NCBI RefSeq assembly: GCF_003668955.1
Contig: NZ_RAWO01000002.1
Span: 599,605 to 663,604, forward strand
Origin: Corallococcus sp. AB038B
Lineage (GTDB): Bacteria > Myxococcota > Myxococcia > Myxococcales > Myxococcaceae
DNA: 64,000 nucleotides
Reading direction: 5' to 3'
Positions 12,263 through 31,000 of the stretch are shown one piece after another (position 1 is the first letter of the stretch; every line of letters starts with the position of its first letter). The notes beneath the pieces are model-generated. The model was not told where the DNA came from. It saw only the letters and a program-made list of their open reading frames with translations, and made no database searches. The translations under genes were made by a program, and so were the position numbers.

Positions 12263-13270
12263 TTATTTCTTCTCCGCGTAGATGTGTTCCCAGATGGAGT
12301 CGCCAGAGGGCTGCGGCTCGTCGCGCACGGTGCGCGCCGCGGCGGCCAGCTCCTCCGAGTACCGGGTGCGCGCCTCGTCCATCTGCTCGCGGTTGAGGAC
12401 TCCTTCCTGCTCCAGCCGCGCCTCGAACAGGCGCAGGCAGTCCTGCTCCTCGTTCACGAAGTTGGCGCCGGACGCGGACGAGTGCCCGTACAGGCGGGAC
12501 ACGCGAGCCTCGATGAAGAAGGGCTTGCGCTCCTTGCGCACGTACTCCATCGCGGCCTGGATCTCCTGGTAGGACTCCACCGGATCAATGCCGTTGATGG
12601 TCTTCGCCTGGATGTTGAAGGCGCGCGCGCGGTCGCTGATGTTCGTCTCGCCGTGCTGGCCGTCCGAAGTGGTGCTGATGCCCCACTTGTTGTTGGTGAC
12701 GATGATCAGGATGGGCAGCGGGTTGGCCGGGCGGCTGCTCCAGATGAGGCAGCTGGCGAAATCGCCCTCGGCCGTGCCCGCGTCGCCGCCGGTGACGATG
12801 GTGATGCCGTCGCCGCCGTGGCGCTTCTGGGCCATGGCCGTGCCCGGCGCGACGGCGTACTGCACCTCGATGGGGGAGGTGACGGGCGCGATGTTCTTCG
12901 AGCGCCGGCTGAAGTGGCCCGCGAAGTTGCGGCCGCCGGAGTAGGGGTCCGTGGCCGTGTTCTTCATCTGCCGCAGCGCCCCGATGGGCTCCTCGCCCAT
13001 GGCGAGCAGCGTCGCGGACTGACGGTAGTGCGCGTGCAGGTAGTCGTAGGCCGGGCCCTCGCCGACCTTCATCAGCATGCCCAGGGGGACGTTGAACGCC
13101 TCCTCACCGGGGCCGCCGATCCAGAAGTAGCCGTGGCCCTGCTTGTACATCTGGATCAGGCGCTCCTCCAGGACGCGCGCCTTCACCATCAGGTCATGGA
13201 TGCGAATGAGCTGCTCTCGGGGCAGGGAGAGCGGCGCGGAGTTCTCTTTGATCAACCGGGGCCGAGACAC
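12263..13270 (-). CDS. Branched-chain α-keto acid dehydrogenase E1 component, α subunit (TPP-binding; esg-type locus)
   Basis: 335 aa. TPP motif GDGITIVTGGDAGTAEGDF…NNKWGIST. Gene order α then β matches the Myxococcus esg locus. Confidence 0.9.
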   Translation of the reverse strand: MSRPRLIKENSAPLSLPREQLIRIHDLMVKARVLEERLIQMYKQGHGYFWIGGPGEEAFNVPLGMLMKVGEGPAYDYLHAHYRQSATLLAMGEEPIGALRQMKNTATDPYSGGRNFAGHFSRRSKNIAPVTSPIEVQYAVAPGTAMAQKRHGGDGITIVTGGDAGTAEGDFASCLIWSSRPANPLPILIIVTNNKWGISTTSDGQHGETNISDRARAFNIQAKTINGIDPVESYQEIQAAMEYVRKERKPFFIEARVSRLYGHSSASGANFVNEEQDCLRLFEARLEQEGVLNREQMDEARTRYSEELAAAARTVRDEPQPSGDSIWEHIYAEKK

Positions 13271-13528: not shown

Positions 13529-15415
13529 GTGGACTCCTCGCGTCAATCAGGAAGTGAGATACAGTCCGCCCCGCTCCGACCGCGTTCTCCGACGCGGGCT
13601 CCCCCAGGTGTGCCTTTGTCCCGTACGAACACGCGCCTCGATCCCGTGCCCGAATCACCTGATGCATCCGATGCGGCGCCCGGCACCCCGCCTCCTCCTC
13701 CGGAGTACACCGGCACCCATTCCCGGGAGCTCACCGGGCTGCGCGGGGAGAACACGGCCACCCGGCTGACGGGCTCGGTGGGGCTGCCGGCGACGGAGCC
13801 CACGAGCACGGTCATCGCGCCCATGGAGGCCGGAGAGCTGCCCAACGTGGCGGCCATCCGCGGGCTCCGGTTGGATCAGCTGCTGCTGCTCACCACGGGC
13901 GCGCTGGTCATCGTGATCGTGGGCCTGCTGGCCGCGCTGTCCGCGAAGACGACGGAGGCGCAGCTCACCGCGACGTCGGACCGCTTCACGCAGCGGCTCC
14001 AGTCCCAGGCGCGCGAACTGGGTCAGACGGTGAGCCACACGCTGGCGCTCACCTCCGCCACCAGCCTGCGTGACAACAACTACGCGTTCCTCACGGAAGT
14101 GGCGCGCTCCATCATCTCGGACAACCGCAACATCCTGCGTGTGCAGATGTTCGACGCGGACGGGCAGCTCGTCGCGGACAGCGACCCGTCCGCCAAGCTG
14201 GGCGAGTCCTCCGGAGGCCGCAGCGCCGAGCGCCGCTGGGCCAGCGCCTTCTTCCAGGGCCAGCCCGTCTTCGAGTTCCAGGAGCCGCTCGACTACGGCT
14301 CGCAGGCCGGCAAGGGCGTGGTCGTCATCAGCTACTCGCTGGAGGACCTGCAGAAGCAGCTGCATGAGTTGGAGGAGACCAACCGCGCCGCGGTGCGCGC
14401 CAACACGCTGCGCATCGTCGGGCTGGGTGTGGGCTTCGTCGTACTGGCCGGCGTGCTGGCCGCGTTCCAAAGCCGCCGCATCACCAAGCCGCTGGGCGTG
14501 CTCACCCACCGCGTGATGCAACTGGCCGCCGGTGACCTGGGCGCTCGCGCGGGCACGGCGCCGGGCGCGGGCCGCGAGGTGACGACGCTGGGCGTGGTGT
14601 TCAACCACATGGCGGAGCGCATCAAGGTCCTGCTGGAGGACGTGCGCGCCAAGGCGCAGCTGGAGCGCGAGGTGTCGCTCGCGCGCACGGTGCAGGAGAC
14701 GCTCCTTCCGGGCCGCGAGGCCGTGACGGTGGGCCCGCTGCGGCTGGCCGGGCTGGTGGTGCCCGCGGACGCGTGCGGCGGCGACTGGTGGTTCCGCGCC
14801 GCGCTGGACGACCGGCGCGTGGTGATTGGCATCGGAGACGTGACGGGCCACGGTCTGTCCACGTCGCTGGTCGCCACCAGCGCCACCAGCGGCTTCGCCT
14901 CCGCCATGACGCTGCGCGAGCCGTCGCAGGTGCACGCGCAGATGCTGATCACCGCGCTCAACGTGACGCTGGCCAACGTGGGTCGCGGCGAGCACCAGAT
15001 GTCCAGCGCGCTCGCGGTCATCGACGTGTACAGCGGGCAGATTGATTACGCGGCGGGCGCCCACCCGGCGGCGGCCATCTACAACCGGAACACGCGGCAG
15101 ATGGCCTCGCTGCCCGCGCGTGGTCCGCTGCTGGGCGCGAACGTCGCCTCGCAGTTCACGTCGCGCCAGGCGGTGCTGAGCCCCGGCGACATCGTCGTCT
15201 GGTACACGGACGGCCTCACCGAGGCGCGCGACGGCGCCAACCGGCTCTACGGCACGCAGCGACTGGCCGCCGCGCTCCAGACCCACGCCCACCTCCCCGC
15301 CGACGCCCTTCGCGACGCGCTCCTCGCGGACGTGCGCGCGTACAGCGCCGGCCAGCCCCAGCGCGACGACATCACCGTCATCGTCGCCGAATTCAGCCCC
15401 GCCCCCTCGCCGTGA
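13529..15415 (+). CDS. Membrane-anchored HAMP–PP2C (SpoIIE/RsbU-type) serine phosphatase
   Basis: TM helix LLLLTTGALVIVIVGLLAAL. HAMP region …ITKPLGVLTHRVMQLAAGDLGAR. PPM block CGGDWWF…IGIGDVTGHGLSTSL…WYTDGLTEA. Start uncertain between 13529 and the Met at ~13826. Confidence 0.8.
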   Translation: MDSSRQSGSEIQSAPLRPRSPTRAPPGVPLSRTNTRLDPVPESPDASDAAPGTPPPPPEYTGTHSRELTGLRGENTATRLTGSVGLPATEPTSTVIAPMEAGELPNVAAIRGLRLDQLLLLTTGALVIVIVGLLAALSAKTTEAQLTATSDRFTQRLQSQARELGQTVSHTLALTSATSLRDNNYAFLTEVARSIISDNRNILRVQMFDADGQLVADSDPSAKLGESSGGRSAERRWASAFFQGQPVFEFQEPLDYGSQAGKGVVVISYSLEDLQKQLHELEETNRAAVRANTLRIVGLGVGFVVLAGVLAAFQSRRITKPLGVLTHRVMQLAAGDLGARAGTAPGAGREVTTLGVVFNHMAERIKVLLEDVRAKAQLEREVSLARTVQETLLPGREAVTVGPLRLAGLVVPADACGGDWWFRAALDDRRVVIGIGDVTGHGLSTSLVATSATSGFASAMTLREPSQVHAQMLITALNVTLANVGRGEHQMSSALAVIDVYSGQIDYAAGAHPAAAIYNRNTRQMASLPARGPLLGANVASQFTSRQAVLSPGDIVVWYTDGLTEARDGANRLYGTQRLAAALQTHAHLPADALRDALLADVRAYSAGQPQRDDITVIVAEFSPAPSP

Positions 15416-17937
15416 CGAATCGCATGCGCCCATTCCACCGTTCCCCGCGCCGCGTCTCCACCGCGCTCGCCCTGCTGGCCACCCTGGCCGGCCCGCCGGC
15501 GGCGCTCGCCCAGTTCCGCCCTCCGCCCGCCACCGAGGCGCAGCGCATGACGGAGCAGGGCGAGCAGGCCCTCGTGTCCGCCAACGCCGCCGCCTCCAAG
15601 GGTGACAAGAAGGAGGCGGAGGAGAAGTTCAAGAAGGCGCTCCAGCTCTTCGAACAGTCGCTCACGCAGGAGCCGCAGTCCGTGTTCGCCGCCGCGGGCC
15701 TGGGCAGCGCCGCCAACGCGCTCCAGGACTTCCAGCGCACGGCCGCGCGCCTTGCGCCGGTGTTCGCGCAGAACCCGCAGGAGCTGTCGCTCGCGTACCC
15801 GCTGGGCACCGCGTACTTCAAGCTGCGCCGCTTCCAGGAGGCGGTGCCGGTGCTGGAGCAGGTGGCCGCCGCGGATCAGCCGGACCACCTCATCGTCCAC
15901 TACTACCTGGCCAGCTATTACCTGTACGTCCAGGACGGGAACCGGGCCGTGACGCGGCTGCAGCGCTACCTGACGCTGCGCCCGGAGAAGCTCGCGGGCA
16001 ACGACTTCCAGATCCACGAGCTGCTGGGCAAGGCGCACCTCATCCGCCGGGACGCTGTCGCCGCGCGCGCCTCGTTCGAGAAGGCGCAGGCCGGCCGGGC
16101 CGAGTCCGCGACCGCGCAGATCGGCCTCGCGGCCGTGCTGGAGATGGAAGGCCACGTGCAGGAGTCCCGCGCGCTCCTGGAGCGGCTGGTGACGAAGTTC
16201 CCGCAGGTGGCGGAGCCGAAGGAGCGCCTCGCGCGCCTGTATCTCGCCGCGGGCGACGTGCCGCGTGCGGACCTCCAGGCCACCGCCCTGATGAAGCTGG
16301 GCTCCACTCCCGCCGCGCACCTCTTGCTGGGTGACGTGCGGCTCGCGCAGAAGCAGCCCGCGCAGGCGGAAGCGGAGTTCCGCAAGGTGCTGGAGCTGCA
16401 GCCGGGCCTGCTCCTGGGACAGATCGCCGTGGGCAAGGCGCTCCAGGCGCAGGCGCGCCACGAGGAGGCCATCCAGTTCCTGGAGTCCGCCGTGAAGTCG
16501 GGTGGCGGCAGCCTGGAGCTGTGGGCGACGTTGGGCTCCGTCAACCGCCGTGCCGGCCGCTACCAGCGCGCGGTGGAGGTGCACCGGCGCGTGGTGGAGA
16601 TGGCCCCGCGCCAGGCGCTGGGCCACGTGCTGCTGGGCGCGGATCACTTCGCCACCGGCCAGTGGGATCAGGCCATCGAGGACTACGGCAGCGCGCTCCA
16701 GGTGGAGCCCAACCACCCCGGCGCGAAGCAGTGGCTGGCCCGGGCCCTGGCCCACCGCGCGAGAGACCGAGCCGGCACCCAGCGCCTGGAAGACGCCGTG
16801 CGCGACCTGCGCCGCGCGTATGACCTGGACCGCTCCGTGCCCATGGCCCGCCGGCTGGGCGCGGCGCTCCTGGACAGCCACCAGTTCGCGGAGGCCCGCA
16901 AGGTGATGGAGGGCGCGGTGACGCTGCCGGGTGCGACCTGGCGCGAGCACCTGTTGCTCGGCTACGCCCGGCTGGGCGGTGGCGACGCGCAGGCCGCGCT
17001 CGCCGCGTTCACCCAGTCCGGTGAGGCCACGCAGGAGCCGGATCAGCGCGCGGAAGCGTCCGCGGGCGCCGCGCTCGCGGAAGTGGAGCTGGGCCAGGTG
17101 GACGCCGCCGTGCAGCGGCTGACGGACGCGGGGCCCTCCAAGACGGCCGCGAAGGTGGCGGAGGCGAACCTGCCTCGCGTGCTGGTGCGCCGGGCCCTGG
17201 CGAAGCTGGAGACGGGCGACGCCGCCGCGGCGAACCGGGACCTGGACGCGGTGGACCGCCTGGGCACCGGCAAGCGCGGGGACCTGGCGAAGCTGGCCGC
17301 CTTCGCCCGTGCGCTCACGCGCGCGGAGGAGGGGAAGTTCGCGGAGGCCACCGCAGGCCTCAAGCGCTCCCTCACGCCCGCGCCGGAATGGGCCTGGCCC
17401 AACACGCGCACGCTCGCGGATGCGTGGGTGCTCTACCGCCAGGGCAAGGTCGCGCCCTCGCGCAAGCTGCTCACCGCCGCGCAGAAGAAGCCCATGCCCG
17501 GGCAGCCGAAGTGGATGGGCAACCTCACCGGCGCGCTGCTGCGGCGTGAGGCGGCGCTCGCGTACGCCTCCGGCAACATGAAGGCGTCGGAGAAGGCGCT
17601 GAAGGCCGCGCTCGCCGCGACGCCCGACGACGCGCTGGTGCAGCACAACCTGGCGTGCGTGGGCTGGCGCCAGGGCGACAGCGCTTCGGCGCTCGCGACA
17701 TGGAAGCGCCTGGAGACCGCCGTACCTGTCGCCTCGCTCAACCTGGGCATCGACGCGCAGGAGCGACGGCATGAACCCGCCGAGGCCGTGGACGCCTGGC
17801 GCCGCTACCTGGCTGCTGGCGCGGGTCCTCGCGCCGCTCAGGTGCGGGAATGGAAGGACCGCCTGCAGGGCCTCTATGGACTGGGTGACGCGCAGGGCGT
17901 CGCGCCGGCCGCTGGGGTCGCGGAGGAGACGCCGTGA
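15412..17937 (+). CDS. Secreted tetratricopeptide-repeat (TPR) protein
   Basis: Signal peptide …LATLAGPPAALAQ, then about 20 TPR-like helical repeats. The ATGA start/stop overlap with the phosphatase gene suggests translational coupling. Confidence 0.8.
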   Translation: MTNRMRPFHRSPRRVSTALALLATLAGPPAALAQFRPPPATEAQRMTEQGEQALVSANAAASKGDKKEAEEKFKKALQLFEQSLTQEPQSVFAAAGLGSAANALQDFQRTAARLAPVFAQNPQELSLAYPLGTAYFKLRRFQEAVPVLEQVAAADQPDHLIVHYYLASYYLYVQDGNRAVTRLQRYLTLRPEKLAGNDFQIHELLGKAHLIRRDAVAARASFEKAQAGRAESATAQIGLAAVLEMEGHVQESRALLERLVTKFPQVAEPKERLARLYLAAGDVPRADLQATALMKLGSTPAAHLLLGDVRLAQKQPAQAEAEFRKVLELQPGLLLGQIAVGKALQAQARHEEAIQFLESAVKSGGGSLELWATLGSVNRRAGRYQRAVEVHRRVVEMAPRQALGHVLLGADHFATGQWDQAIEDYGSALQVEPNHPGAKQWLARALAHRARDRAGTQRLEDAVRDLRRAYDLDRSVPMARRLGAALLDSHQFAEARKVMEGAVTLPGATWREHLLLGYARLGGGDAQAALAAFTQSGEATQEPDQRAEASAGAALAEVELGQVDAAVQRLTDAGPSKTAAKVAEANLPRVLVRRALAKLETGDAAAANRDLDAVDRLGTGKRGDLAKLAAFARALTRAEEGKFAEATAGLKRSLTPAPEWAWPNTRTLADAWVLYRQGKVAPSRKLLTAAQKKPMPGQPKWMGNLTGALLRREAALAYASGNMKASEKALKAALAATPDDALVQHNLACVGWRQGDSASALATWKRLETAVPVASLNLGIDAQERRHEPAEAVDAWRRYLAAGAGPRAAQVREWKDRLQGLYGLGDAQGVAPAAGVAEETP

Positions 17938-18860
17938 AGACGCCATCCCTTGTCGCGCGGGGGAGCCTCCTGCTCGCCGCCGTGCTGTTCGCCGTTTCCG
18001 TTGCCAGCCCCGCGTCCGCCGCGCCGAAGAAGGCCACGCTGGGCGTGTTCCTCGCCACCACGCTGTCGGACGGCCAGGAGCGCTTCCAGTACGCGGAGGC
18101 GCTCGCCCAGAAGCTGGAGGCCAGCCTGGGCCGCCCCGTTGGCGCCAAGAGCTTTGGCCGCTACGAGGACTTCTCCAAGGCGGTGGGGGAGGGGCAGATC
18201 GACTTCGCCGTGGTGGACGGCTGGGCCGCGGTGCAGCTGGGCTCCAAGGCGGAGCCGGTGGCGTACGCGCCGCGCGCCGGTGAGACGCAGCAGCGCTGGG
18301 CCATCATCTCCCTCCAGAAGGGCACCGTGAAGGACCTGGCCGGCAAGCGCATGGCGCTGGTCAAGGGCGCCGGCTCCGCGGATCCGAAGTTCGTCTCCCA
18401 CGTCGTGCTGGGCGGCGACCTGGATGCCCAGAAGCACTTCAAGCTGGTGCCGGTGCCCAACGTGGAGTCGGCGGTGAAGATGCTGGAGGCCAAGGGCGCG
18501 GAGGCCGCGCTCGTGCCGGTGGCGCACGTGCCCAAGGACATGCGGGTGCTCTTCAAGAGCAGCCGGGTTCCGGGCGCCGTGCTGGTGGACCTGAAGGGCG
18601 GGGGAGACGCGTTGTCCCAGTCCCTGTCCTCCGTGGGTGCGGTCGCCCCGTTCGACGCCTTCGCCCGCATCCAGGGCCGCGAGTTCGAGGACTTCCGCAA
18701 GCTCGTCACCCAGGGCCCCCCGCGCCGTCAGCCCGTCCTCGCGGACTCGCCCGACCTGCGGGTGGAGACCCCCGTGCTCGTCCAATCCGAGTCGCTGGGT
18801 CCTGCCCTGCCGCCGTTCGCGGACGACCTGGCCGTCTCCGCCGAACAGCCGGATGACTGA
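17934..18860 (+). CDS. Orphan periplasmic PhnD/SsuA-like (phosphonate-type) substrate-binding protein
   Basis: GTG start overlaps the TPR stop (GTGA). Signal peptide LLLAAVLFAVSVASPASA. PBP-fold signature GQIDFAVVDGWAAVQ. No ABC permease or ATPase follows. Confidence 0.7.
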   Translation: MKTPSLVARGSLLLAAVLFAVSVASPASAAPKKATLGVFLATTLSDGQERFQYAEALAQKLEASLGRPVGAKSFGRYEDFSKAVGEGQIDFAVVDGWAAVQLGSKAEPVAYAPRAGETQQRWAIISLQKGTVKDLAGKRMALVKGAGSADPKFVSHVVLGGDLDAQKHFKLVPVPNVESAVKMLEAKGAEAALVPVAHVPKDMRVLFKSSRVPGAVLVDLKGGGDALSQSLSSVGAVAPFDAFARIQGREFEDFRKLVTQGPPRRQPVLADSPDLRVETPVLVQSESLGPALPPFADDLAVSAEQPDD

Positions 18861-19081
18861 TTGCGCCGTGGGCTGATCCGCGCACGGTGGTTTCGCCGCC
18901 GTGCGCGTGTTTCACCGCGATCGACAGCCATGACTTGGCCTAAGGCGAGTTATTGCGGTAATTTGAGAAGTCGAGCGGATCGCCACCGTTCAGGGGTGGA
19001 AACTCGTCCCTGAGAACGATTGCCAGTCGCACCGGCTCTGGTTCCTGGCGCTAGGACCGCGGATACCCCCTGCTTCCCCTC

Positions 19082-21697
19082 GTGGAATTGAGAACGATGG
19101 ACTCGACTGAGTACGGTGGATCGCGCACCAACGCGGTGAAGGGGTTTGCCGGTCGGATGGGCGCGCGCGCGTGCCTGACCCTGGTGGTTTGCGCCCTGTC
19201 CCTCTTCGCGGTGGAGACGGCCCAGGCCCAGGAGGCCCAGGAGCCCGCCCCCAAGACGCGGACCAAGGCCACACGCAAGCGCGCGGCCACCACGCCGGGC
19301 GCCAAGGCCGCCACGCCGGGTGCCAAGGCCGCCACGCCCGGCGCGAAGCCTCCGCGCACGGCGAAGACGCGCCGGGGCGCGAAGGCCCAGCCCCCGCCGA
19401 CGGACGTGGAGCCCATTCCCACGGACGAGCCCGCCGCGCAGCCGCCGGCGCTCGCCACCGAGCCGCCGCCCGCGCCGCTCGCCCCCGTGGCCGGCCCGGG
19501 CCCGTCCGTTTCGGATCCGCTGCCCGTGGCCTCGCCGTCGCCGTATGACGGGCCGCTGACTTCGGACATCCCGTCCAACCCGCCGCCCGCGCCCGCGCTG
19601 GGTGCCGGCGCGATGCTGCCGTCGTCGCAGCCGCGCACGGCGGACAACGTCCCGGACCGCGCGCCCTTCACGGAGCCCACCTCCGACCGCGCGCTGCCGC
19701 CGCCCTCCAGCCTCTCCGGCCTGGACGGCCCGGACCTGGGCGGTGGCGACGACCTGGAGCAGAACATCAACAGGGCGCTGAGCGAGGCCGTCGTCACCAC
19801 GGCGTCCAAGCGCAGCCAGCGCATCTCCGACGTGCCCCTCACGGTGTCGTGGATCCCCGCGGAGGAGCTGGAAGGCACCGGCCAGTTCTCGCTCTGCGAG
19901 GCCATCCAGTACTTCCCCGGCATGGAGTGCCGCCGGGGCTCCATGCGCAAGGCGGCGGTGAGCGCGCGCGGCCTGGGCTCCAACTACCTGTCCAACCGCC
20001 TGCTGCTCCTCAAGGACGGCCGTCCGCTGACGGACCCCTGGACGGGCCAGTTCTACGCGGATGAGACGACGCCGCTCACCAACCTGAAGCAGGTGGAAGT
20101 CATCCGCGGCCCGGGCTCGTCGCTCTACGGCTCCAACGCCTTCAGCGGCGTCATCAACATCATCGAGCGCCAGCCCGCGGACCTCATCGCCAAGGGCCAG
20201 AACGTGGGCGCCGACGCGCGCATCCTCGCGGGCCAGGACAAGACCTGGCGCCTGCAGACCAACGTCGCCGGCCGCGGCGGTCCGGTGGAGGCGCTGCTCG
20301 GCTACTACGGCTTCGGCTCGGACGGCCCGCAGCTCTTCAACAACCCGCAGCTGAACCAGACGGACACCAACGAGGACTCGCTGGTCCATCAGGTGAACGG
20401 CAAGGTCCGCGTGGGCCCCCTCGCGCTGGACGCGGACTTCACGGACGGCAACATCGGCCGGCCCGGCGGTCAGAACATCTCCACCGTGGGCAACTGCGGC
20501 CGCTGCCACTACACCGCGCAGGACAACGAGCACGTCCAGAACCTGAACGCCGCCCTGCAGTTGGATCAGCAGGTGACGGACCACGTGCGCGTGTTCGCCC
20601 AGGCCTACGCCTTCTTCAAGCGCCGCAACGTGACGCTGGAGAACGAGGTCACCGGCGCCCTGGAGGACACGCTGGGCAAGCGCAGCCGCCTGGGCGGTGA
20701 GGCTCGCGCGCTGTTCTCCCTGGACAAGCTCTCCGTCACCGTCGGCGGCGACGTGAAGGCCGACCAGGTGAACAACCAGAACATCCTGCCCGGCCTGACC
20801 CTGGACGACACGAAGCAGACCATCCTGGGCGGCTTCGTGGACGCGGAGTACCGCATCACGGACCGGCTGGTGGTGGGTGCGGGTGCTCGCTACGACAACT
20901 ACCAGATCCCCGCCAAGGTCTGGGAGGCGAAGACGGATCAGGTGTCCCCGCGCGCCAGCGTCGTGTTCCACGCCATCCCGGAGTTGCTCACGCTGCGCAC
21001 CAACTACGGCCGCGCCTTCCGCGCGCCCACGATGGCGGAGTTGGCCATCAACCAGCAGATGTACGCCGCGACGCTGTTGGGCAACCCGTCCCTGCGCGCG
21101 GAGACGCTGGACACGGTGGAGGCGGCGGTGGACTTCTGGCCGCTGGACCGCAGGGTGCGCCTGACGGGCACGGGCTTCTACAACCGCGCCCGCAACTTCA
21201 TCAATCAGGAGCTCCTCTTCGGCTCCACGTCCCAGTTCAAGAACCTGGGCGACGCGCGCGTGGCGGGCTTCGAGGCGGAAGCGGCGGCGCAGGTGCCGTC
21301 CCTCAACTCGTCCTTCGACGTGGCCTACCAGTTCCTGGACGCCCAGGCGCTGCCCGTGGGCGGCGGATCCAGCTACCCACTGGACTACGCGCCCACCCAC
21401 CGCGTCTACCTGCGCGGCCGCACCAACATCGGCAAGTTCGCCTTCGTGGAGCTCTACGGCCTGTTCGTGGGCGCCCGGTATGATCCGGGCTTCGTGGTGG
21501 ACGAGAACGCCGGCACCACCACCCGCGTGAAGCTGCCCAGCTACATCACCGCGACCGCGCGCGTGGGCTTCAACGTCCACGAGCGCGTGGCGGTGTCACT
21601 GCTGGGCACAAACCTCTTCAACGCGAAGTACGAGGAGTCCCACGGCTTCCCCGCACCGCCGCTGGGCGTCTTCACAGAAGTTCGACTCCATTATTAG
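19082..21697 (+). CDS. TonB-dependent outer-membrane receptor with a ~250-aa Pro/Ala-rich repetitive N-terminal extension
   Basis: Plug-domain motif VEVIRGPGSSLYGSNAFSGVINI and a long β-barrel. Signal peptide MGARACLTLVVCALSLFAVETAQA (alternative start at 19157). Confidence 0.85.
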   Translation: MELRTMDSTEYGGSRTNAVKGFAGRMGARACLTLVVCALSLFAVETAQAQEAQEPAPKTRTKATRKRAATTPGAKAATPGAKAATPGAKPPRTAKTRRGAKAQPPPTDVEPIPTDEPAAQPPALATEPPPAPLAPVAGPGPSVSDPLPVASPSPYDGPLTSDIPSNPPPAPALGAGAMLPSSQPRTADNVPDRAPFTEPTSDRALPPPSSLSGLDGPDLGGGDDLEQNINRALSEAVVTTASKRSQRISDVPLTVSWIPAEELEGTGQFSLCEAIQYFPGMECRRGSMRKAAVSARGLGSNYLSNRLLLLKDGRPLTDPWTGQFYADETTPLTNLKQVEVIRGPGSSLYGSNAFSGVINIIERQPADLIAKGQNVGADARILAGQDKTWRLQTNVAGRGGPVEALLGYYGFGSDGPQLFNNPQLNQTDTNEDSLVHQVNGKVRVGPLALDADFTDGNIGRPGGQNISTVGNCGRCHYTAQDNEHVQNLNAALQLDQQVTDHVRVFAQAYAFFKRRNVTLENEVTGALEDTLGKRSRLGGEARALFSLDKLSVTVGGDVKADQVNNQNILPGLTLDDTKQTILGGFVDAEYRITDRLVVGAGARYDNYQIPAKVWEAKTDQVSPRASVVFHAIPELLTLRTNYGRAFRAPTMAELAINQQMYAATLLGNPSLRAETLDTVEAAVDFWPLDRRVRLTGTGFYNRARNFINQELLFGSTSQFKNLGDARVAGFEAEAAAQVPSLNSSFDVAYQFLDAQALPVGGGSSYPLDYAPTHRVYLRGRTNIGKFAFVELYGLFVGARYDPGFVVDENAGTTTRVKLPSYITATARVGFNVHERVAVSLLGTNLFNAKYEESHGFPAPPLGVFTEVRLHY
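19286..19348 (+). repeat. 3 × 21-nt in-frame tandem repeat encoding (A)ATPGAK in the receptor N-extension
   Basis: gccacSccgggYgccaaggcc ×3, translating to ATTPGAKAATPGAKAATPGAKPP. Confidence 0.8.
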
Positions 21698-21705
21698 GGC
21701 GCTGT

Positions 21706-22548
21706 TTGGATACCGTCGCCGCCGTGAAGGATGCTCCCCTGAAGTTGACGCCGGACACGACGCTCACGCCGGAGGCACTGGAGAAGGCCTCCGGAGTGCT
21801 GGCCCGGGACGGCCTGTTGTTGGGGCGCGGTGACGACGCGGCGCCGCAGCTGGTGCTGTTCGACGGGCGGTTCACTCCCGCCCACGCCGCGCTCCTGGAA
21901 CGCCGTCCCCCGGCGCTGCTGCTGGCCACCCGCGAGGGCGGCCAGCCGTCCGCCTGGGAGGCTCGGCTGTTGAGCGCGCTCCTGCGCGGCGAGCCCATGA
22001 TCCCCCAGGAAGCCGCCACGTCCGTGGCGTGGCTGGGCAGCGTGGCGGAGGTGACGGCCGTGGGCGAGCGCGCGGCCGAGGCCGTCCTCCAGGCTGGCGG
22101 CTCCAAGGGCGCGGCCAGCCGGGTGGCGGATGTCGTCCATGAGATTGGCGTGAACGCGCTGCTCGACGCGCCAGTGGACGGAAGCGGCGAGCCGAAGTAC
22201 GCCCACCGGCGCGGTCAGGTGCAGTCGGTGGCGGATGAAGACCGCTGCCTGGTGTCGTGGGCGGTGGCGGACGGCCGGGCGTGGCTGGAGGCGACGGATC
22301 GCTTCGGCCGCCTGTCGGTGTCACCGCTGGTGCGAGTGATGAAGGCCTGGGGTGAGAAGGCGCAGGTAGATGCTTCGGGTGGTGGCGCGGGCCTGGGTCT
22401 GCGGCGCATCCTGGAGCACAGCGACGCGGTGGCGGTGCGGGTGACTCCGGGAAAGCGCACACAGTTCGCCTGTGGAGTGGACCTGGGCGACGCTCGCCGC
22501 CGGGCCGCGCAGCCCAAGTCGCTGCTGTTCAGTCTGGAACGAGGGTAG
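21706..22548 (+). CDS. GHKL-type ATPase, anti-sigma-factor (RsbW/SpoIIAB)-like, with an uncharacterised N-domain
   Basis: C-terminal N-box HEIGVNALLDA, G1-like DGSGEP and G2 box GGGAGLGL. TTG/GTG start; the exact start is uncertain. Confidence 0.55.
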   Translation: MDTVAAVKDAPLKLTPDTTLTPEALEKASGVLARDGLLLGRGDDAAPQLVLFDGRFTPAHAALLERRPPALLLATREGGQPSAWEARLLSALLRGEPMIPQEAATSVAWLGSVAEVTAVGERAAEAVLQAGGSKGAASRVADVVHEIGVNALLDAPVDGSGEPKYAHRRGQVQSVADEDRCLVSWAVADGRAWLEATDRFGRLSVSPLVRVMKAWGEKAQVDASGGGAGLGLRRILEHSDAVAVRVTPGKRTQFACGVDLGDARRRAAQPKSLLFSLERG

Positions 22549-22552
22549 GCGG

Positions 22553-25500
22553 GTGGAGAGCCAAACTTCCAATGCCAGCATCACCTCCCTGCGCGTGGGC
22601 AGTCTGACCCACGTGCGCGTGGCCGGGGTGATCGACGAAACCTTCCCCCTCACGCCAGCGTCCAAGGGCATCCAGGGCCTGGTGGTGGTGGACCTGGGCC
22701 TGGTGGAGCGGATCAGCTCCTTCGGCGTGCGCCGGTGGATCGAGTTCGCCGGCCACCCGCCGCAGGGCGTGTCGGGGCTGTACGTCGTCAACGCGCCGCC
22801 GGTGGTGGTGGATCAGCTCAACATGGTGGAGGGCTTCGCGGGCGTCGCGCGCGTGCTCTCGCTGTTGGCGCCGTACACGTGCCGCTTCTGCAAGGAGGAC
22901 CGGCTGCGGCTGGTCCGCCTGGTGGAGGAGGCGAAGGTGCTGGAGCAGGGCGGGGCCCCGCCGCACCAGTGCCCGGTATGCTCCCAGCCGCTGGAGTTCG
23001 CGGACGAGCCCACGGAGTTCTTCGACTTCGCGCGCCGCCAGCAGTTCTCCGCGGTGGATCCCGCGGTGCTGCGCTACCTGCGCTCCGGCATCCCATCGGA
23101 GCCGTCCGAGCTCTCGTCGCACCTGAAGATCGTCCAGGACGACATCACCTTCATCACCCTGGCCAGTACGCTCAAGGGCGACCTCAACGTGCGCCGGCTG
23201 GCGTCCGGCCTGGAGGGGCGCGTCGCATTCGACTGCTGCCACGTGAGCGTGGTGGAGCAGGAAGCGCTGCCGCGCATCGAACAGGTGCTGGAGGTGGCCG
23301 CGCAGGGCGCCCAGGTGGTGCTGTGCCGCGTGCCGCCGCCGCTGCTGGCCGTGCTGGCGAAGTCCACCAAGACGCTGCCCGCGAAGCTGGCCACGCTGTG
23401 GCTGCCGTGCGACTGCCGCAACTGCGGCCAGGTCACCCACCAGCGCATCCAGACCTCCGAGTACCTGGAGGTGCTGCGCGCCAAGGGCACCATGGAGCGC
23501 GTGTGCCCCGTCTGCGGCGGCAACGCCCGGGCCCCGGCGCTCGCGCAGTTCCAGGGGCTGCTCGCGCGCACGCCGCTCACGGACAAGCCGCTGGAGGACA
23601 TCGAGGCGCTGGAGCAGCGCGCGCTCAGCCAGTACCTCTTCGGCTCCACCAACACGGACCCCAGCGCCCGGGGCTCGTCAGCCACGGACACGCACACCAG
23701 CGGCGCGCGGCTGCAGATCATCCGCCGGCTGGGGCAGGGCGGCATGGCGGAAGTGTTTCTCGCCAAGCAGCAGGGCGTGAAGGGCTTCGAGAAGTTCGTG
23801 GTGATGAAGAAGATTCTCGCGCAGTTCGCTGAGAATCCTGAGTTCGTCGACATGCTCTTCGCGGAGGCCCGCGCCAACGCGCGCCTCACGCACCCCAACG
23901 TCGTGCAGACCTTCGACGTGGGCGTGACGGACGGCGTGGCGTACATCCTGATGGAGTACGTGCGCGGCCCGGACCTGAAGCGCCTGCTCACGGAGCTGCG
24001 CCGCAAGGGCATGGCGCTGCCGCTGGAGCACGCGCTGCGCATCGTGGCGGAGGTCGCCGCGGGCCTGCACTACGCGCACAGCTACGTGGATCCGTCTGGC
24101 ACGGCGCACCCGGTGGTGCACCGCGACGTCAGCCCCCACAACGTGCTGGTGTCGCTGGACGGCGCCATCAAGCTGTCGGACTTCGGCATCGCCAAGGTGC
24201 AGGGCGAGGAGCACACGCAGGCGGGCGTCATCAAGGGGAAGATTTCGTACCTCTCCCCGGAGGCCGCCAGCGGCCGCCCGCTGGACTGGCGCAACGACGT
24301 GTTCGCGCTGGGCGTGGTGCTCTTCGAACTGCTCACCGGCCAGCTGCCGTTCCGCCGGGACCATGACGCGGCCACGCTCGCGGCCATCGTGCGCGAGCCC
24401 GCGCCGGTGCCCTCGCAGCTGCGGCCCCACATCCCGCAGGACGTGTCGGACCTCATCCTGCGCGCGCTGGTGAAGGACCCGGCGCGGCGCACGCCCTCCG
24501 CGGCGGCGATGCGCGAGGAGATTGAAGCCGTCATCGCGCACCACCGGCTGTCCTCGTCGCCCGCGTCGGTGGCGCAGTTCTTCAAGGAGACGCTGGGCGA
24601 CCGGCTCTCCGAGTACGCGCCGTCGTCCATCGCCGGCCCGGGGACGGGCTCCAACCCCCGGGCGCTGATGCCGGGCACGGGCTCGCACTCGCGCAACCTG
24701 GGTACGGGCTCGGGCAGCGACATGCGGGCCCCCTCGGACCTGTCCCGTCCGCCCGTGCGCGGCGGTTCCGGCAGCATGCCCCGGATGGAGCCGCCCCCGG
24801 TGGCCTCCCCGCCGGAGCCCGCCGAGCGCGGCACCGAGGTCGTCTCCGTCAACGGGCCGCCCGTGGCCTCCGCGCCTCCGGTGGCACCGCCCGTGGCCGC
24901 CGCGCCCCGCCCGTCGCGCCCGGCCGCGCCTCCTCCCACGTCGCCGATGCCGCCGCCCACCGCGGTGCGCCCCGCGGCGTCCGCCAACGTGCCCACGCGC
25001 GTGGGGCCTCCTCCGCAGGCGCCCGCGCGTCCGTCGGTGGCGGTGCCCTCCGTCGCCCCCCTGACCGCGGCTCCGCAGCCGCACCCCGTGGCAGCGCCCC
25101 CGTCGCATGGGGGCACCCACGCGCAATACGGGGCCGCCCACGCGCAGCAGGGAAGCGCCCCGCAGCCGCCGCTGGGGCACCATGCGCCGCCGCCGACCGG
25201 CTCCCACGCGGCCTATGGGGGACACCCCCCCTCGCCCGTGGCCGTGCCGCCGCCGCACGTGGCTGCCCCGCATGCTCCGCCGGTGTCCGCTCCCGTGGCT
25301 CCGCCCGCGCGGCCTCCGGCGGCTCACGTGGCCGCGCCGCCGGCCCCCGTCCACGCGGTCTCCCCCACGGCTCCGGCGCCCACCGCCGAAGCGACGGGGA
25401 AGGGGATGACGCCCGGTCAGCGCAAGGGGCTCATCGTGGGCGGCGTGGGCCTGGTGCTCGCGGGGCTCGCGTTGGTGTTCCTGCTGCCCAAGGGTGGCGT

Positions 25501-25903
25501 GGAGGTGCGCAACGCCCAGGAGGGCGAGCGCGTCTACGTGTCCGGCGTCCTGCTGGATGCGAGCCAGGGCCTGCCCGAAGGCAACACCGGCTGGCTCATC
25601 TCCACGGCCGTGGACGGCAAGCTGCACCGCTTCGGCAAGGTGCCGAAGTCGGAGCACATCGACCTGCGCACGCTCGCGGACGCCCCGCCCCAGGCGGAGG
25701 CCCGGGGCATACTCAGCATCACCGGTGCCCAGGGCTGCCGCGTGGCGCTGGGCTCGCAGGTGCTGGAGGGCCAGACGCCCCTGTCCAACCAGATGCCCGC
25801 GGGGCGCGAGTTCGAGGTGCGCGTCACCTGCGGCGGCAAGCCGGACGTCGTCCGCTGGGTGATGGCCGTCCCGGGGCAGGGCGTCGTGCTGGACGTGCCC
25901 TGA
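22553..25903 (+). CDS. Hanks-type Ser/Thr protein kinase: N-terminal 2×(STAS-like + Cys4 Zn-ribbon), kinase domain, Pro/Ala-rich linker, TM helix, C-terminal PEGA domain
   Basis: GTG at 22553 lies 4 nt after the upstream stop; the ORF is open from 22472 but that part overlaps the upstream gene. Kinase motifs: GQGGMAEVFLAK, VVMKK, HRDVSPHNVL, DFGIAK, SPE. Zn-ribbons: CRFC…CPVC and CDCRNC…CPVCGG. TM helix GLIVGGVGLVLAGLALVFLL. Confidence 0.85.
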   Translation: MESQTSNASITSLRVGSLTHVRVAGVIDETFPLTPASKGIQGLVVVDLGLVERISSFGVRRWIEFAGHPPQGVSGLYVVNAPPVVVDQLNMVEGFAGVARVLSLLAPYTCRFCKEDRLRLVRLVEEAKVLEQGGAPPHQCPVCSQPLEFADEPTEFFDFARRQQFSAVDPAVLRYLRSGIPSEPSELSSHLKIVQDDITFITLASTLKGDLNVRRLASGLEGRVAFDCCHVSVVEQEALPRIEQVLEVAAQGAQVVLCRVPPPLLAVLAKSTKTLPAKLATLWLPCDCRNCGQVTHQRIQTSEYLEVLRAKGTMERVCPVCGGNARAPALAQFQGLLARTPLTDKPLEDIEALEQRALSQYLFGSTNTDPSARGSSATDTHTSGARLQIIRRLGQGGMAEVFLAKQQGVKGFEKFVVMKKILAQFAENPEFVDMLFAEARANARLTHPNVVQTFDVGVTDGVAYILMEYVRGPDLKRLLTELRRKGMALPLEHALRIVAEVAAGLHYAHSYVDPSGTAHPVVHRDVSPHNVLVSLDGAIKLSDFGIAKVQGEEHTQAGVIKGKISYLSPEAASGRPLDWRNDVFALGVVLFELLTGQLPFRRDHDAATLAAIVREPAPVPSQLRPHIPQDVSDLILRALVKDPARRTPSAAAMREEIEAVIAHHRLSSSPASVAQFFKETLGDRLSEYAPSSIAGPGTGSNPRALMPGTGSHSRNLGTGSGSDMRAPSDLSRPPVRGGSGSMPRMEPPPVASPPEPAERGTEVVSVNGPPVASAPPVAPPVAAAPRPSRPAAPPPTSPMPPPTAVRPAASANVPTRVGPPPQAPARPSVAVPSVAPLTAAPQPHPVAAPPSHGGTHAQYGAAHAQQGSAPQPPLGHHAPPPTGSHAAYGGHPPSPVAVPPPHVAAPHAPPVSAPVAPPARPPAAHVAAPPAPVHAVSPTAPAPTAEATGKGMTPGQRKGLIVGGVGLVLAGLALVFLLPKGGVEVRNAQEGERVYVSGVLLDASQGLPEGNTGWLISTAVDGKLHRFGKVPKSEHIDLRTLADAPPQAEARGILSITGAQGCRVALGSQVLEGQTPLSNQMPAGREFEVRVTCGGKPDVVRWVMAVPGQGVVLDVP

Positions 25904-25976
25904 GCCGGACGGAATGTCCCGTGCCGGAGGACACCGCTGACAAAGCGGCCCTCCGGTCGGTGAGGCCGTGCGGGGC

Positions 25977-26369
25977 CTACAGTTTCTTCAGCAGGAAGGC
26001 CCGGTACTGGCCGTAGCCCGGCAGGTCCTCGCCGAGGGAGCCGTCCACCTTCGCGCGCAGCGTGAGCGTGCCGTCCATCAGGTCCAGCGTGAAGCCCGGC
26101 GCGTCCTTGTGGACGATGTGCAACGTCTGGATGCCTTCCCGGACGGCCTGCTTTCCGATGGCGTCGCTGCAGACGGACTTCATGTCGTCGATGAGCCGGT
26201 CGAAGACGCCGTTGGAGAGCATCTGGATGGCGGCCACGGTGGTGAAGCTCGCCTCGTCCAGCGTCACCTGGATGTCCGCGCCCGCCGCGGCCTCCTTCAG
26301 CTCCGCCACCTTCGAGGCGAAGGTGTCGTTCTTGAACGCGGCCAGTTCCGACCGTTCGGCGAGACCCAT
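25977..26369 (-). CDS. SCP2 (sterol-carrier-protein-2)-fold lipid-binding protein
   Basis: 130 aa with an SCP2-like pattern (…FTLDLMDGTLTLRAKVDG…). The assignment is tentative. Confidence 0.6.
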   Translation of the reverse strand: MGLAERSELAAFKNDTFASKVAELKEAAAGADIQVTLDEASFTTVAAIQMLSNGVFDRLIDDMKSVCSDAIGKQAVREGIQTLHIVHKDAPGFTLDLMDGTLTLRAKVDGSLGEDLPGYGQYRAFLLKKL

Positions 26370-28089: not shown

Positions 28090-31000
28090 ATGCCCTCCAC
28101 GCAGCCCATCGATCCCGCTGTCGCGATGCTGGCGCCCTACATGCCGGCGGCCATCCTCGCGCGGCTTGGGAGCCAGGATGCGGACGCGCTGCCCCGGGCG
28201 GAGGGCGTGCGGGGCGCCATCCTGCTGCTGGACATCGCGGGCTTCACGCCCATCGTGGTGGGGCTGAGCGGCGCGGGCCCTCGCGGCATCGACGCGCTCC
28301 AGCGCCTGCTGACGAACTACTACACGGAGATGATCGACGTCGTCCGCGACCACGGCGGGGACATCTACCAGTTCGCCGGCGACTCCATCCTCGCGTGCTT
28401 CGAGTCCGCGCCCGAGGAAGCGGACGCGGACGTCGTGCAGCGAGCGGCGGTGTGCGCGCTGGGCGTGCAGCGCAGGCTGGCGCGCTTCGCCCGGCTGGAG
28501 CTGTTGGGCCAGCGCTTCGGCGTGTCGTCGCGCATCGGAATCGGCTTTGGTGAGGCCACCCGCATCGTGATGGGCACCACCGGCCTGTGGATGCACCCGG
28601 CGCTCGTGGGAGAGCCGCTGGCGCAGGCGGTGGGCGCGGAGAAGCAGGCCACGGTGTCGGAGGTCGTCTTGAGCCCGCGCGCCTGGGCGGCGCTGCCGGA
28701 GTCCGCGCGCAGGGGCGATCCACGCGAGGGTGGCAACCACCGGCTGGCGCTCGACGCGCCGGTGGAGTCGGTGAAGCGCCCGCTGCCCGCGCCCACGGGC
28801 GGGGCGGAGCTGGTGGGCCGGTGCGCGCTGCTCCTGCACCCGGTGCTCTTCACGAAGATCACCACCGCGCACCAGGAGTTCGCGGGCGACTTCCGCGACG
28901 TCACCTGCTTCTTCGTGCGCTTCACCCACGCGCAGGCGGACACGGATCCGGACGCGTTCACCCACGACCTCAACGCCTACTACGAATACGTCCAGCGCGA
29001 GTCCGCCCACCACGGCGGCGTGCTGCTGATGACGGACTTCACGGACAAGGGCAACGTGCTCTACGTCCTGTTCGGCGCGCCCACCGCCCAGCAGAACAAG
29101 GAGGTGCTGGCGTGCCGGCTGGCCTGCAAGCTGCTCAAGGCCCGGGAGCAGTTCCCCTTCCTGGATGAGCTGCAGATCGGCATCGCCACCGGCCACGCCT
29201 ACTGCGGCGACATGGGCTCGCCCACGCGCAAGGGCTACTCGGCGCTGGGCGAGGTCGTGAACATGGCCGCGCGCCTGATGACGCACGGCGGACGCCAGGA
29301 CGGCGTGCACCTGTGCGCCAACACCCAGTCGCGCTCGCAGCAGGGCGGCTTCGCCACGGAGTTCGTGGAGGACGCGAAGCTCAAGGGCGTGTCGCGCACG
29401 GTGCCGGTGTACCGGCTCTTGGGGGAGACGCGCCGCAGCCTCTTCATCAAGGGCCGGGGCGACATCATCGGCCGCAGCCGCGAGCTCAACGTGCTGCACG
29501 CGTCGCTCAACGCGGCCTTCGCGGGCCAGGGCCGCGTGAGCGTGGTGTCCGGCGAGGCGGGCATCGGCAAGTCGCGGCTGGGCGCGCGCGTGTTGGAGGA
29601 CGCGGAGGAGGGCGGCGCCCGGGCGCTGTACGGCGTCTGCTACTCCTACGAGGCCTTCACCCCCTTCTTCCCCTGGAAGGAGGTGCTGCTCCAGGCCTTC
29701 GGTCTTCACGACTCGGACGACACCGAGGCGCAGCTCACGCGCCTGCGGCAGGGGCTGGACGGCCTGGAGGACGTGGGGCCGGAGTGGATTCCCGTGGTCG
29801 CGGGCATCCTCGGCATGTCGCTGGAGGAGACGTCCGCCACGGCGGGGATGGACGCGCGGCGCAAGCAGCAGAAGGTGTTCCAGATCGTCTTCCAGCTCCT
29901 GGAGAAGCTCAGCCGCGCGCAGCCGCTGCTGCTCTACTTCGAGGACCTGCACTGGGCGGACTACATCTCGTTGGACCTGCTCCAGTACCTGGCGGTGCGC
30001 GTGGGCTCGCACCGCATCATGGTGCTGGCGACGATGCGCCCGGGCGACCAGCTCCGCGGTCTGCGCGAGCTGCCGGAGTTCGTCCCGGTGGACCTGACGA
30101 GCCTGGACGAAGAGGACACGCGGGCGCTGCTGCGCGTGCACCTGCGCCTGTCGCCGCCGGACGTCGCGCTGGAGGACCGGCTGCTCGCGAAGGTGCAGGG
30201 CAACCCGTTCTTCATCGAATCCATCGTGGAGGGCCTGGCGGAGCAGGGCTACCTGGGGCCGGTGGAGCCCGGCTCGCCGCGCATGGAGGTGAAGCGCGGC
30301 CTCCAGGACCTGCTGCTGCCGGACTCCATCCAGGACGTGGTGCTGTCGCGCATCGACCTGCTCAGCGAGACGGAGAAGCTGGTGGTGAAGGTGGCGTCCG
30401 TCATCGGGCGCATCTTCACGCTGGACGCGGTGGTGGCGCTGGTGCCCACGCTGGGGAGCAAGGTCCTGCGCGAGGCCATGGACACGCTCCAGCGCCTGGG
30501 CCTCATCCTGCTGGAGACGGAGGAGCCGTACACCTGCCTCTTCAAGCACATCGTCATCCGCGACGTGGCCTACAACACGCTGCTGGTGTCCGCGCGTGAG
30601 GACCTGCACCGCCGGCTCGCGCGCTACCTGGAGGCCCGCGCCAACGACAACCTCGCGGGCTCCGCGGGTCTGCTCGCGTTCCACTTCCTCGCGGGCAACG
30701 TGGAGGACAAGGGCCTGGCGTACACGCTGATGGCGGCCCGCAGCGCGCGGGCGCAGTACGCGAACGACGACGCGCTCTACCACTACAACCGGGGCCTGGA
30801 GCTGCTCGGCACCGTCGTCCCGGTGGACCCGGAGGTGACGCTCCTCCAGACGCGCCGGGTGATGCAGGAGCTGGCGGAGACGTTGCTCCAGGCGGGCCAC
30901 TACGCCAACGCCATCCTGATGTTCGAGCAGTGCCTGGTGGACGAGGAGGAGCCCCCGCTCCAGGCGGAGCTGCACCTGGGCCTGGGCCGCGCGCACCAGG

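Follow-up and report, generated by a model that had tools for sequence, protein, structure and literature searches.

Bacteria have two large Ser/Thr phosphorylation systems, partner switching and Hanks-type kinases, which tend to be considered in isolation from each other. There are precedents for partner switches that act on an enzyme. In Pseudomonas aeruginosa SiaABCD, the switched partner is an enzyme (SiaD) and not a sigma factor, and the switch consists of a PP2C phosphatase, a kinase of the SiaB type, and an antagonist that can be phosphorylated (PMC7647112). In the Anabaena module HenR/All4160/Alr3423, a STAS domain is fused to the regulated enzyme and its phosphorylation is set by a PP2C phosphatase and RsbW-type kinases (PMC13555669). 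Here, we analyze a block of six genes (g1 to g6) in a 64,000-nucleotide stretch of the genome of Corallococcus sp. AB038B (contig NZ_RAWO01000002.1, positions 599,605 to 663,604; hereafter the window). The genes encode a membrane HAMP-PP2C phosphatase of the SpoIIE family (g1), a secreted TPR protein (g2), a periplasmic PhnD-like solute-binding protein (g3), a TonB-dependent receptor (TBDR, g4), a two-domain protein with a GHKL domain of the SpoIIAB/RsbW type (g5), and a Hanks-type Ser/Thr kinase with a tandem STAS N-terminus (g6). With moderate confidence, we interpret the block as a partner-switching-type phosphorylation module that has the Hanks Ser/Thr kinase, and not a sigma factor, as its regulated partner. 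The locus is conserved and appears to put a Hanks kinase under the control of a partner switch.

The block differs from the Bacillus modules SpoIIE/SpoIIAB/SpoIIAA and RsbU/RsbW/RsbV in several respects, the first being that it contains no sigma factor gene. Its STAS domain is duplicated, has a Cys4 ribbon with each copy, and belongs to the same polypeptide as a Hanks kinase domain, a transmembrane (TM) segment, and a periplasmic domain. The GHKL protein has an additional N-terminal domain, and its sequence has diverged too far for the Pfam model HATPase_c_2 to recognize it. The phosphatase sits in the membrane and combines a periplasmic sensor with HAMP, and a secreted TPR protein, a binding protein, and a TBDR are co-encoded. 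By analogy, SiaABC-SiaD and the Anabaena All4160 module are the nearest functional analogues, as both are partner switches on enzymes. The likeness to SiaABCD extends to the proteins, as SiaA (6k4e) is closest to the PP2C domain of g1 in sequence and SiaB ranks among the best structural matches to g5. However, the likely output here is a fused Hanks kinase, whereas that of Sia is a separate diguanylate cyclase. The STAS domains of the block are not of the SiaC (DUF1987) type, no cyclase gene is part of it, and g1 stays well below the SiaA equivalog cut-off (86 versus 700), although SiaA is its best NCBIfam match. Sia, in turn, is without TPR, binding-protein, or TBDR genes. In the Anabaena module, the All4160 enzyme is a glycosyltransferase with a single STAS domain and no zinc ribbons and not a protein kinase as in the block, the phosphatase has a response-regulator input in place of a TM sensor, and the genes do not form a single block.

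Fusions of STAS (COG1366) to eukaryotic-like kinases in Sorangium cellulosum were the subject of a one-sentence genomic remark in 2010 (PMC2887360). They resemble g6 in that STAS is joined to a eukaryotic-like kinase in a myxobacterium, but the remark gives no module, partner kinase, or mechanism. The same study treats Myxococcus xanthus as poor in STAS proteins and recognizes neither the MXAN_4557-type N-terminus as STAS nor MXAN_4558 as RsbW-like. The original prediction, which was made from the window sequence alone, did not match the combination of components to any described system. This largely holds for the module, as we found no functional literature on MXAN_4557 to MXAN_4562, but the STAS-kinase fusion as such had already been noticed. 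The block also recalls FecA-FecR-FecI, with which it shares a TBDR extension before the TonB box and co-encoded inner-membrane signaling proteins with periplasmic domains. Unlike that system, the six genes and the flanks examined encode no STN domain, FecR-like anti-sigma factor, or extracytoplasmic function (ECF) sigma factor, the g4 extension is of low complexity with one short Pro-rich motif, and the TBDR is absent from several loci that carry the core.

Folds and motifs of the core proteins

The phosphatase g1 was recognized by the Pfam models SpoIIE (131.7 bits) and HAMP (37 bits). Its N-terminus is cytoplasmic and Pro-rich, and the metal-site motifs of the SpoIIE/PPM family (GGDWW, GDVTGHG, TDGL, RDDIT) are intact. 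The nearest solved relatives of its PP2C domain by sequence are SiaA (E 3e-13), Rv1364c, and RssB. The M. xanthus orthologue MXAN_4562 is the sole SpoIIE-like phosphatase reported for this organism in a 2010 survey, which describes MXAN_4562 and its orthologues sce8427 (Sorangium) and adeh0917 (Anaeromyxobacter) as the one HAMP-SpoIIE phosphatase conserved in myxobacteria (PMC2887360).

The identity of g5 comes from fold comparison, since hidden Markov model (HMM) searches against Pfam, NCBIfam, and PADLOC returned no match and neither did a g5-family sequence profile searched against the PDB. In structure prediction and fold search, its best matches are SpoIIAB, RsbW, and SiaB. The N box (E146/N150), a D198-x-F-G201 element, and a GGGAGLG lid are invariant in the family, and g5 thereby presents the N, G1, and G2 boxes of the GHKL Ser kinase/anti-sigma fold. 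The predicted GHKL ATPase is thus borne out as a fold, while the window protein itself receives no HMM support; a distant family member, P0355, barely reaches HATPase_c_2, the Pfam family of RsbW and SpoIIAB. g5 and the corresponding protein of Corallococcus coralloides KYC2213 share 98% identity. Its profile recovered 2049 cluster representatives at E≤1e-3 and 1051 clusters (50% identity) at E≤1e-10, i.e., the g5-type GHKL proteins form a large family that has no Pfam or NCBIfam model. Family members are mostly 300-350 aa long with divergent N-terminal domains (alignment A1; P0241-P0384) and include fusions to PilZ (P0323), a receiver-like domain (P0381), and PEGA (L067:4308-5939). For the N-terminal domain of g5, a match to LvrC and a weak Response_reg match in P0381 give no more than a hint of a receiver-like fold.

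The kinase domain of g6 has the catalytic Lys, HRD, and DFG elements of Hanks-type kinases (VVMKK at aa 416, HRDVSPHN at aa 523, DFG at aa 543). A fold search of g6 aa 1-385 against the PDB placed STAS-domain chains at all of ranks 1-24, with RsbR, RsbV, and SpoIIAA as the best matches and with RsbV and SpoIIAA chains from kinase complexes among them. Sequence methods were less responsive: STAS_2 scored 18.7 bits, which is below the cut-off, and a profile of the N-terminus found only non-significant STAS (MlaB, prestin) and zinc-finger matches in the PDB. The two STAS-like domains that had been predicted on the kinase are therefore confirmed by fold and remain sub-threshold in HMM searches of the window protein. 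The N-terminus is an internal duplication (hhalign 99.4%, E 3e-21) in which each STAS repeat is followed by a Cys4 zinc ribbon, a feature overlooked by the first reading.

STAS repeat 1 contains a candidate phospho-acceptor, Ser56. The residues S56-F57-G58 are invariant in two alignments, of 18 and 57 sequences, which extend to relatives from Kofleriaceae and Planctomycetota. In the model, helix 56-67 begins with Ser56, which stands at the start of helix 2, where a STAS antagonist carries its conserved Ser/Thr. A profile alignment, albeit a weak one (hhalign E 0.004, probability 8%), pairs Ser56 with Ser58, the phospho-serine of SpoIIAA. In repeat 2, the equivalent position is occupied by Q, P, or E, so only repeat 1 has the invariant Ser. 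At the other end of g6, the window protein has no match to PEGA (PF08308) at E≤10, whereas eight of ten orthologous C-termini match this model, and two of these exceed its cut-off (23.0 and 26.1 versus 20.8 bits); the PEGA ectodomain that had been proposed thus finds matches among orthologues but not in the window copy. The coordinates of all features are given in Table 1.

In a metagenomic protein of 570 aa (P0126), a STAS1-Zn-ribbon unit (66% identity) is followed by a classical STAS domain and a cyclic-nucleotide-binding domain, with no kinase.

Table 1 Coordinates of the six genes, their predicted domains and motifs, and the flanking genes in the window
Feature	Position	Strand	Description or basis
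Flanking gene, g1 side	12263-13270	-	pyruvate/2-oxoacid dehydrogenase E1
g1	13529-15415	+	membrane HAMP-PP2C (SpoIIE-family) phosphatase
g1 TM1	13880-13936	+	topology prediction
g1 periplasmic Cache-like region	13937-14407	+	~155 aa; dCache_1/sCache_4 weak, below cut-off
g1 TM2	14408-14464	+	topology prediction
g1 HAMP	14471-14623	+	Pfam
g1 PP2C	14807-15394	+	Pfam SpoIIE
g2	15412-17937	+	secreted TPR protein, 841 aa
g3	17934-18860	+	periplasmic PhnD-like solute-binding protein
g3-g4 intergenic gap	18861-19081	.	221 nt; 296 nt if g4 starts at ATG 19157
g4	19082-21697	+	TonB-dependent receptor
g4 linear motif APFxxPxxxRPLPPP	19661-19705	+	aa 194-208, ~30 aa before TonB box
g4 TonB-box-like heptad EAVVTTA	19784-19804	+	sequence and alignment
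g4 Plug	19823-20152	+	aa 248-357, Pfam
g4 barrel	20441-21616	+	Pfam
g5	21706-22548	+	two-domain protein with SpoIIAB/RsbW-type GHKL domain, 280 aa
g5 N-terminal alpha/beta domain	21733-22035	+	residues ~10-110, structure prediction
g5 GHKL domain	22042-22545	+	residues 113-280, SpoIIAB/RsbW type, structure prediction
g6	22553-25903	+	Hanks-type Ser/Thr kinase with tandem STAS N-terminus, 1116 aa
g6 STAS1	22574-22882	+	structure prediction/fold search
g6 Ser56 codon (STAS1)	22718-22720	+	motif R-I-S-S-F-G-V-R, candidate phospho-acceptor
g6 Zn ribbon 1	22880-22990	+	Cys4: C110/113/140/143
g6 STAS2	23123-23416	+	structure prediction/fold search
g6 Zn ribbon 2	23408-23533	+	Cys4: C288/291/318/321
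g6 kinase	23714-24511	+	Pfam Pkinase, 143.2 bits
g6 TM	25430-25486	+	aa 960-978, preceded by Pro/Ala-rich linker
g6 periplasmic C-terminal domain	25487-25900	+	~138 aa
Flanking ORF, g6 side	25977-26369	-	130 aa

These features also bear on the direction in which the signal would travel. It is conceivable, although we consider it unlikely, that the Hanks domain and not g5 phosphorylates the STAS domains, in cis or in trans. The Hanks kinase would then be the input and g5 the output, i.e., a nucleotide-sensing partner or pseudo-kinase that is captured or released by the STAS tandem and acts through its N-terminal domain. Hanks kinases can act on STAS proteins, as Mycobacterium tuberculosis PknD phosphorylates the anti-anti-sigma factor Rv0516c, and g6 has a periplasmic domain of its own and could therefore be a sensor. 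An atypical G1 box (D-R-F-G) and the failure of HMMs to recognize g5 would suit a pseudo-kinase, but E146, N150, D198, and the GGGAGLG lid are invariant as expected of an ATP-using enzyme. Similarly, an output role is compatible with the additional conserved alpha/beta domain of g5 and with the PilZ, receiver-like, and PEGA domains of some of its relatives, yet its nearest structures are the active Ser kinases SpoIIAB, RsbW, and SiaB, and the invariant Ser of STAS1 falls, in the weak profile alignment, on the position that the GHKL kinase targets in SpoIIAA.

Conservation of the gene neighborhood

The synteny scan considered one genome per species and returned 61 loci, all of them from Myxococcaceae, Archangiaceae, or unclassified relatives. 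The orthologues are tightly linked and not scattered. g5 is located directly upstream of the STAS-kinase gene, on the same strand, at every locus with enough downstream sequence (57/57), and the collinear order of all six genes is found in 37 of the 41 loci that have at least 8.3 kb of upstream flank. M. xanthus DK1622 is among the collinear loci (MXAN_4562 to MXAN_4557).

Rearrangements among the distant loci (42-47% identity; L003, L061, L059, L052, L058, L053, and L054) separate the core from its accessories. The PP2C-TPR-PhnD trio is inverted in L003, where it is divergent from the g5-kinase pair and abuts g5 and where no TBDR is present, and in L061, where the order TBDR-g5-kinase is kept. 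At L059, HAMP-SpoIIE is the immediate upstream neighbor of g5, and the TPR and PhnD genes are both absent. In L052 (4565-8740) and L058 (4366-8529), g1 is replaced by an unrelated HAMP-HisKA-HATPase-4xREC-SpoIIE protein of ~1390 aa; in L052, another type of periplasmic binding protein (SBP_bac_8) comes after it. The replacement proteins would tie a two-component phosphorelay to the same switch. A PP2C gene thus stays near the GHKL and STAS-kinase genes through inversion, loss of neighbors, and non-orthologous replacement. The conserved core consists of the PP2C, the GHKL protein, and the STAS-Hanks kinase, and the TPR and PhnD-like genes accompany the HAMP-PP2C gene, with which they move as a unit also where it is inverted (L003, L061).

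Related genes occur together outside these families. In Kofleriaceae locus L066, a g5-like gene (hhalign 98.3%) immediately precedes a STAS-kinase gene, and the metagenomic loci L067-L069 combine genes for g5-like proteins, STAS-Zn-ribbon proteins, Hanks kinases, and SpoIIE phosphatases. The STAS-Zn-ribbon proteins of these non-Myxococcaceae metagenomic contigs stand alone (157-260 aa; L067:6001-6753, L069:6001-6783, L068:9067-9540), and those in L067 and L069 have SpoIIE genes within 6 kb. Their occurrence suggests a wider STAS-Zn-ribbon/Hanks kinase/PP2C network. Furthermore, two fusion proteins combine the GHKL and STAS components in one chain: L061:15-1604 (529 aa) joins a g5-type GHKL domain (aa 187-305) to a STAS-Zn-ribbon unit (aa 392-522), and P0264 (545 aa) joins STAS_2 to a g5-like domain.

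The same comparison speaks to the rather doubtful alternative that the block comprises two independent units, namely g1-g3 as a sensor-phosphatase operon of the envelope that acts on a substrate other than STAS of g6, and g4-g6 as a TBDR-GHKL-kinase operon. Such a division would follow the 221-nt gap between g3 and g4, which contrasts with the overlaps within g1-g3 and the spacing of 8 and 4 nt within g4-g6. It would also agree with L053 and L054, which have TBDR-g5-kinase but no PP2C trio in the available 4-7 kb upstream (the upstream genes of L054 are PALP and ornithine cyclodeaminase), and with L066, whose g5-like/STAS-kinase pair has no SpoIIE gene within 9 kb. However, the trio still adjoins g5 in L003 and L061 despite being inverted there, the neighbor of g5 in L059 is HAMP-SpoIIE alone, and a non-orthologous SpoIIE protein takes the same position in L052 and L058. 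SpoIIE genes are also found less than 6 kb from the standalone STAS-Zn-ribbon genes of L067 and L069. An unrelated substrate for g1 is further disfavored because M. xanthus reportedly has this SpoIIE-like phosphatase only (PMC2887360) and because STAS proteins are the characteristic substrates of SpoIIE-family phosphatases (PMC11418112).

Proposed mechanism and its implications

Within the reach of sequence analysis and structure prediction, the interpretation as an RsbU/RsbW/RsbV-like triad with a STAS-Hanks kinase fusion is supported, because the orthologues are linked, the folds are as predicted, and the PP2C linkage survives rearrangement. The PP2C, GHKL, and STAS assignments of the original prediction agree with this in fold, motifs, and linkage. 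Unlinked orthologues, or folds other than GHKL and STAS, would have contradicted it; both were looked for and neither occurred. No sigma-factor domain was detected in the six genes or the flanking genes examined, and the module would therefore work like a partner switch but would not be a canonical, sigma-regulating member.

By analogy with the family mechanism, g5 would bind the STAS tandem of g6 and phosphorylate Ser56. The cytoplasmic PP2C domain of g1 would strip this phosphate when the periplasmic Cache-like domain and HAMP relay a signal. The phosphorylation or binding state of the STAS tandem might then set the activity, oligomerization, or localization of the fused kinase domain, which in turn would phosphorylate its targets. 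More speculatively, g2 and the orphan PhnD-like g3 could be periplasmic co-sensors for g1, and in Myxococcaceae and Archangiaceae the co-transcribed TBDR g4 could supply a ligand or conformational signal across the outer membrane.

A number of observations weigh against this partner-switch interpretation. Many of the 61 loci are from closely related species, and the locus counts therefore overstate the number of independent observations. No PP2C trio is present in the 4-7 kb available upstream in L053 and L054 and no SpoIIE gene within 9 kb in L066, and the 221-nt gap splits g1-g3 from g4-g6. Kinase activity of g5 is not assured, because no HMM matches it and its G1 box reads D-x-F-G and not D-x-G-x-G; the protein also carries the extra N-terminal alpha/beta domain, and g6 is the sole switched partner identified for it. 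The alignment that places Ser56 on Ser58 of SpoIIAA is weak. The putative roles of g2, g3, and g4 derive from location and co-inheritance.

If correct, the partner-switch interpretation would explain the control of at least one of the ~100 eukaryotic-like kinases of myxobacteria. It would also point to a likely substrate for the sole SpoIIE-type phosphatase reported in M. xanthus and to a likely role for the large GHKL family represented by g5. The orthologues MXAN_4557 to MXAN_4562 reside in a genetically tractable model organism.

The TonB-dependent receptor and the periplasmic proteins

The receptor g4 was identified by the Pfam models Plug (66.9 bits) and TonB_dep_Rec_b-barrel (151 bits), and its translation likely starts at ATG 19157. 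A signal peptide is followed by a Pro/Ala/Lys-rich extension of ~185 aa and then by the plug, which begins only at residue 248. The long N-terminal extension noted in the original prediction is therefore real, and it is of low complexity. No Pfam model, STN included, matches g4 aa 1-246 even at E≤10. We rejected assignment of g4 to the FecA-type transducers because it has no STN domain. A single element stands out in the otherwise variable extensions, the consensus P..APF..P...RPLPPP of 12 aligned orthologues. The motif APFxxPxxxRPLPPP is present in L002, L017, L031, L032, L034, L038, L045, L053, L054, L057, and L061, and is thus kept by the distant loci L053, L054, and L061. It could be a docking peptide, e.g., for the co-encoded TPR protein g2. 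Its position is where transducer-type receptors carry their signaling domain, which we regard as a lead and not as evidence. Downstream of it, the heptad EAVVTTA resembles the TonB boxes of BtuB and FepA (DTLVVTA and DTIVVTA). The M. xanthus orthologue MXAN_4559 has been tabulated as a TonB-dependent receptor among predicted beta-barrel proteins (PMC3222651) and is also named in a paper on outer-membrane vesicles.

The core is still there in L003, L052, L058, L059, and Kofleriaceae L066, from which the TBDR is missing. The TBDR is a lineage-specific accessory that accompanies g5-g6 in one large clade and is dispensable elsewhere, and the island is therefore not built around the receptor, as had initially been proposed. 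A TonB-dependent cell-surface pathway in Myxococcaceae and Archangiaceae, in which TBDR occupancy would be conveyed via APFxxPxxxRPLPPP to g2/g3, the periplasmic domain of the HAMP-PP2C, the partner switch, and finally the Hanks kinase, seems to us a long shot. If it existed, it would constitute a relay from the outer membrane to the phosphoproteome that operates without an ECF sigma/anti-sigma pair.

HMM searches and signal peptides supported the HAMP-PP2C, secreted TPR, and PhnD-like calls of the original prediction. g2 matches many TPR Pfam families, has a signal-peptide-like N-terminus ending in ALAQ, and could alternatively start at an in-frame ATG at 15424. g3 has a signal peptide and scores 42.4 bits with Phosphonate-bd (gathering cut-off 27) but only 23.3 bits with the PhnD equivalog TIGR03431 (cut-off 261), so its membership is limited to the broad Phosphonate-bd family. 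It had been described as lacking an ABC permease or ATPase partner, and none was found in the block or the flanking genes examined. g3 was rejected as the PhnD of a phosphonate ABC transporter, given this equivalog score and the lack of adjacent PhnC/PhnE.

That the locus serves mainly nutrient uptake, with the TBDR and the PhnD-like protein importing an organophosphorus, anionic, or metal-chelate substrate and the signaling genes regulating this uptake, is improbable. The Phosphonate-bd membership of g3 would fit an importer, as would the best NCBIfam scores of g4, which are to haem/haemoglobin-type and B12-type TBDR subfamilies. However, g3 and g4 remain far below every NCBIfam equivalog cut-off, and g4 reaches none. 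Neither an ABC permease/ATPase nor TonB/ExbBD is encoded in the block or its flanks, no riboswitch precedes g4, the core dispenses with the TBDR in the five loci named above, and g3 is co-inherited with the phosphatase and not with the TBDR. We rejected an anti-phage defence function, because PADLOC kinase models match nothing in the block but the kinase domain and the locus is chromosomal and conserved.

Gene junctions and neighboring features

The six ORFs on the + strand occupy positions 13529-25903, in agreement with the original prediction, and have coding-type GC3 (0.86-0.95; the window has a G+C content of 70%). The block is bounded, as the flanking genes on both sides are on the opposite strand. 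The first three genes overlap, as predicted, although at GTGA in both junctions (g1/g2 and g2/g3) and not at ATGA in one and GTGA in the other. g4 and g5 are 8 nt apart, and the 4-nt spacing between g5 and g6 was as originally stated. The sole sizeable gap within the block is that between g3 and g4, which possibly holds an internal promoter. Rfam models had no match at the gathering threshold in the whole window, nor at E≤1 in 18780-19200. No sigma-70-like sites were found, and sigma-54 consensus matches were rarer than expected by chance, with none in the two intergenic regions. Terminator-like sites were not more frequent than in shuffled sequence.

Just past the stop codon of g6, between convergent genes, there is an inverted repeat at 25924-25956 (CCGGAGG...CCTCCGG with an inner CCGCT/AGCGG pair and no T-run), which may be a bidirectional terminator-like hairpin. 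Further downstream, the gene at 28090-32391 encodes a 1433-aa protein in which an AAA_16 ATPase and TPR repeats accompany an adenylate/guanylate cyclase catalytic domain; this gene is not kept at this place in M. xanthus, which has lantibiotic-dehydratase-like genes there instead. Elsewhere in the window, at 4894-6804, a 636-aa protein combines a CotH kinase domain with a chitobiase/hexosaminidase C-terminal-type domain.

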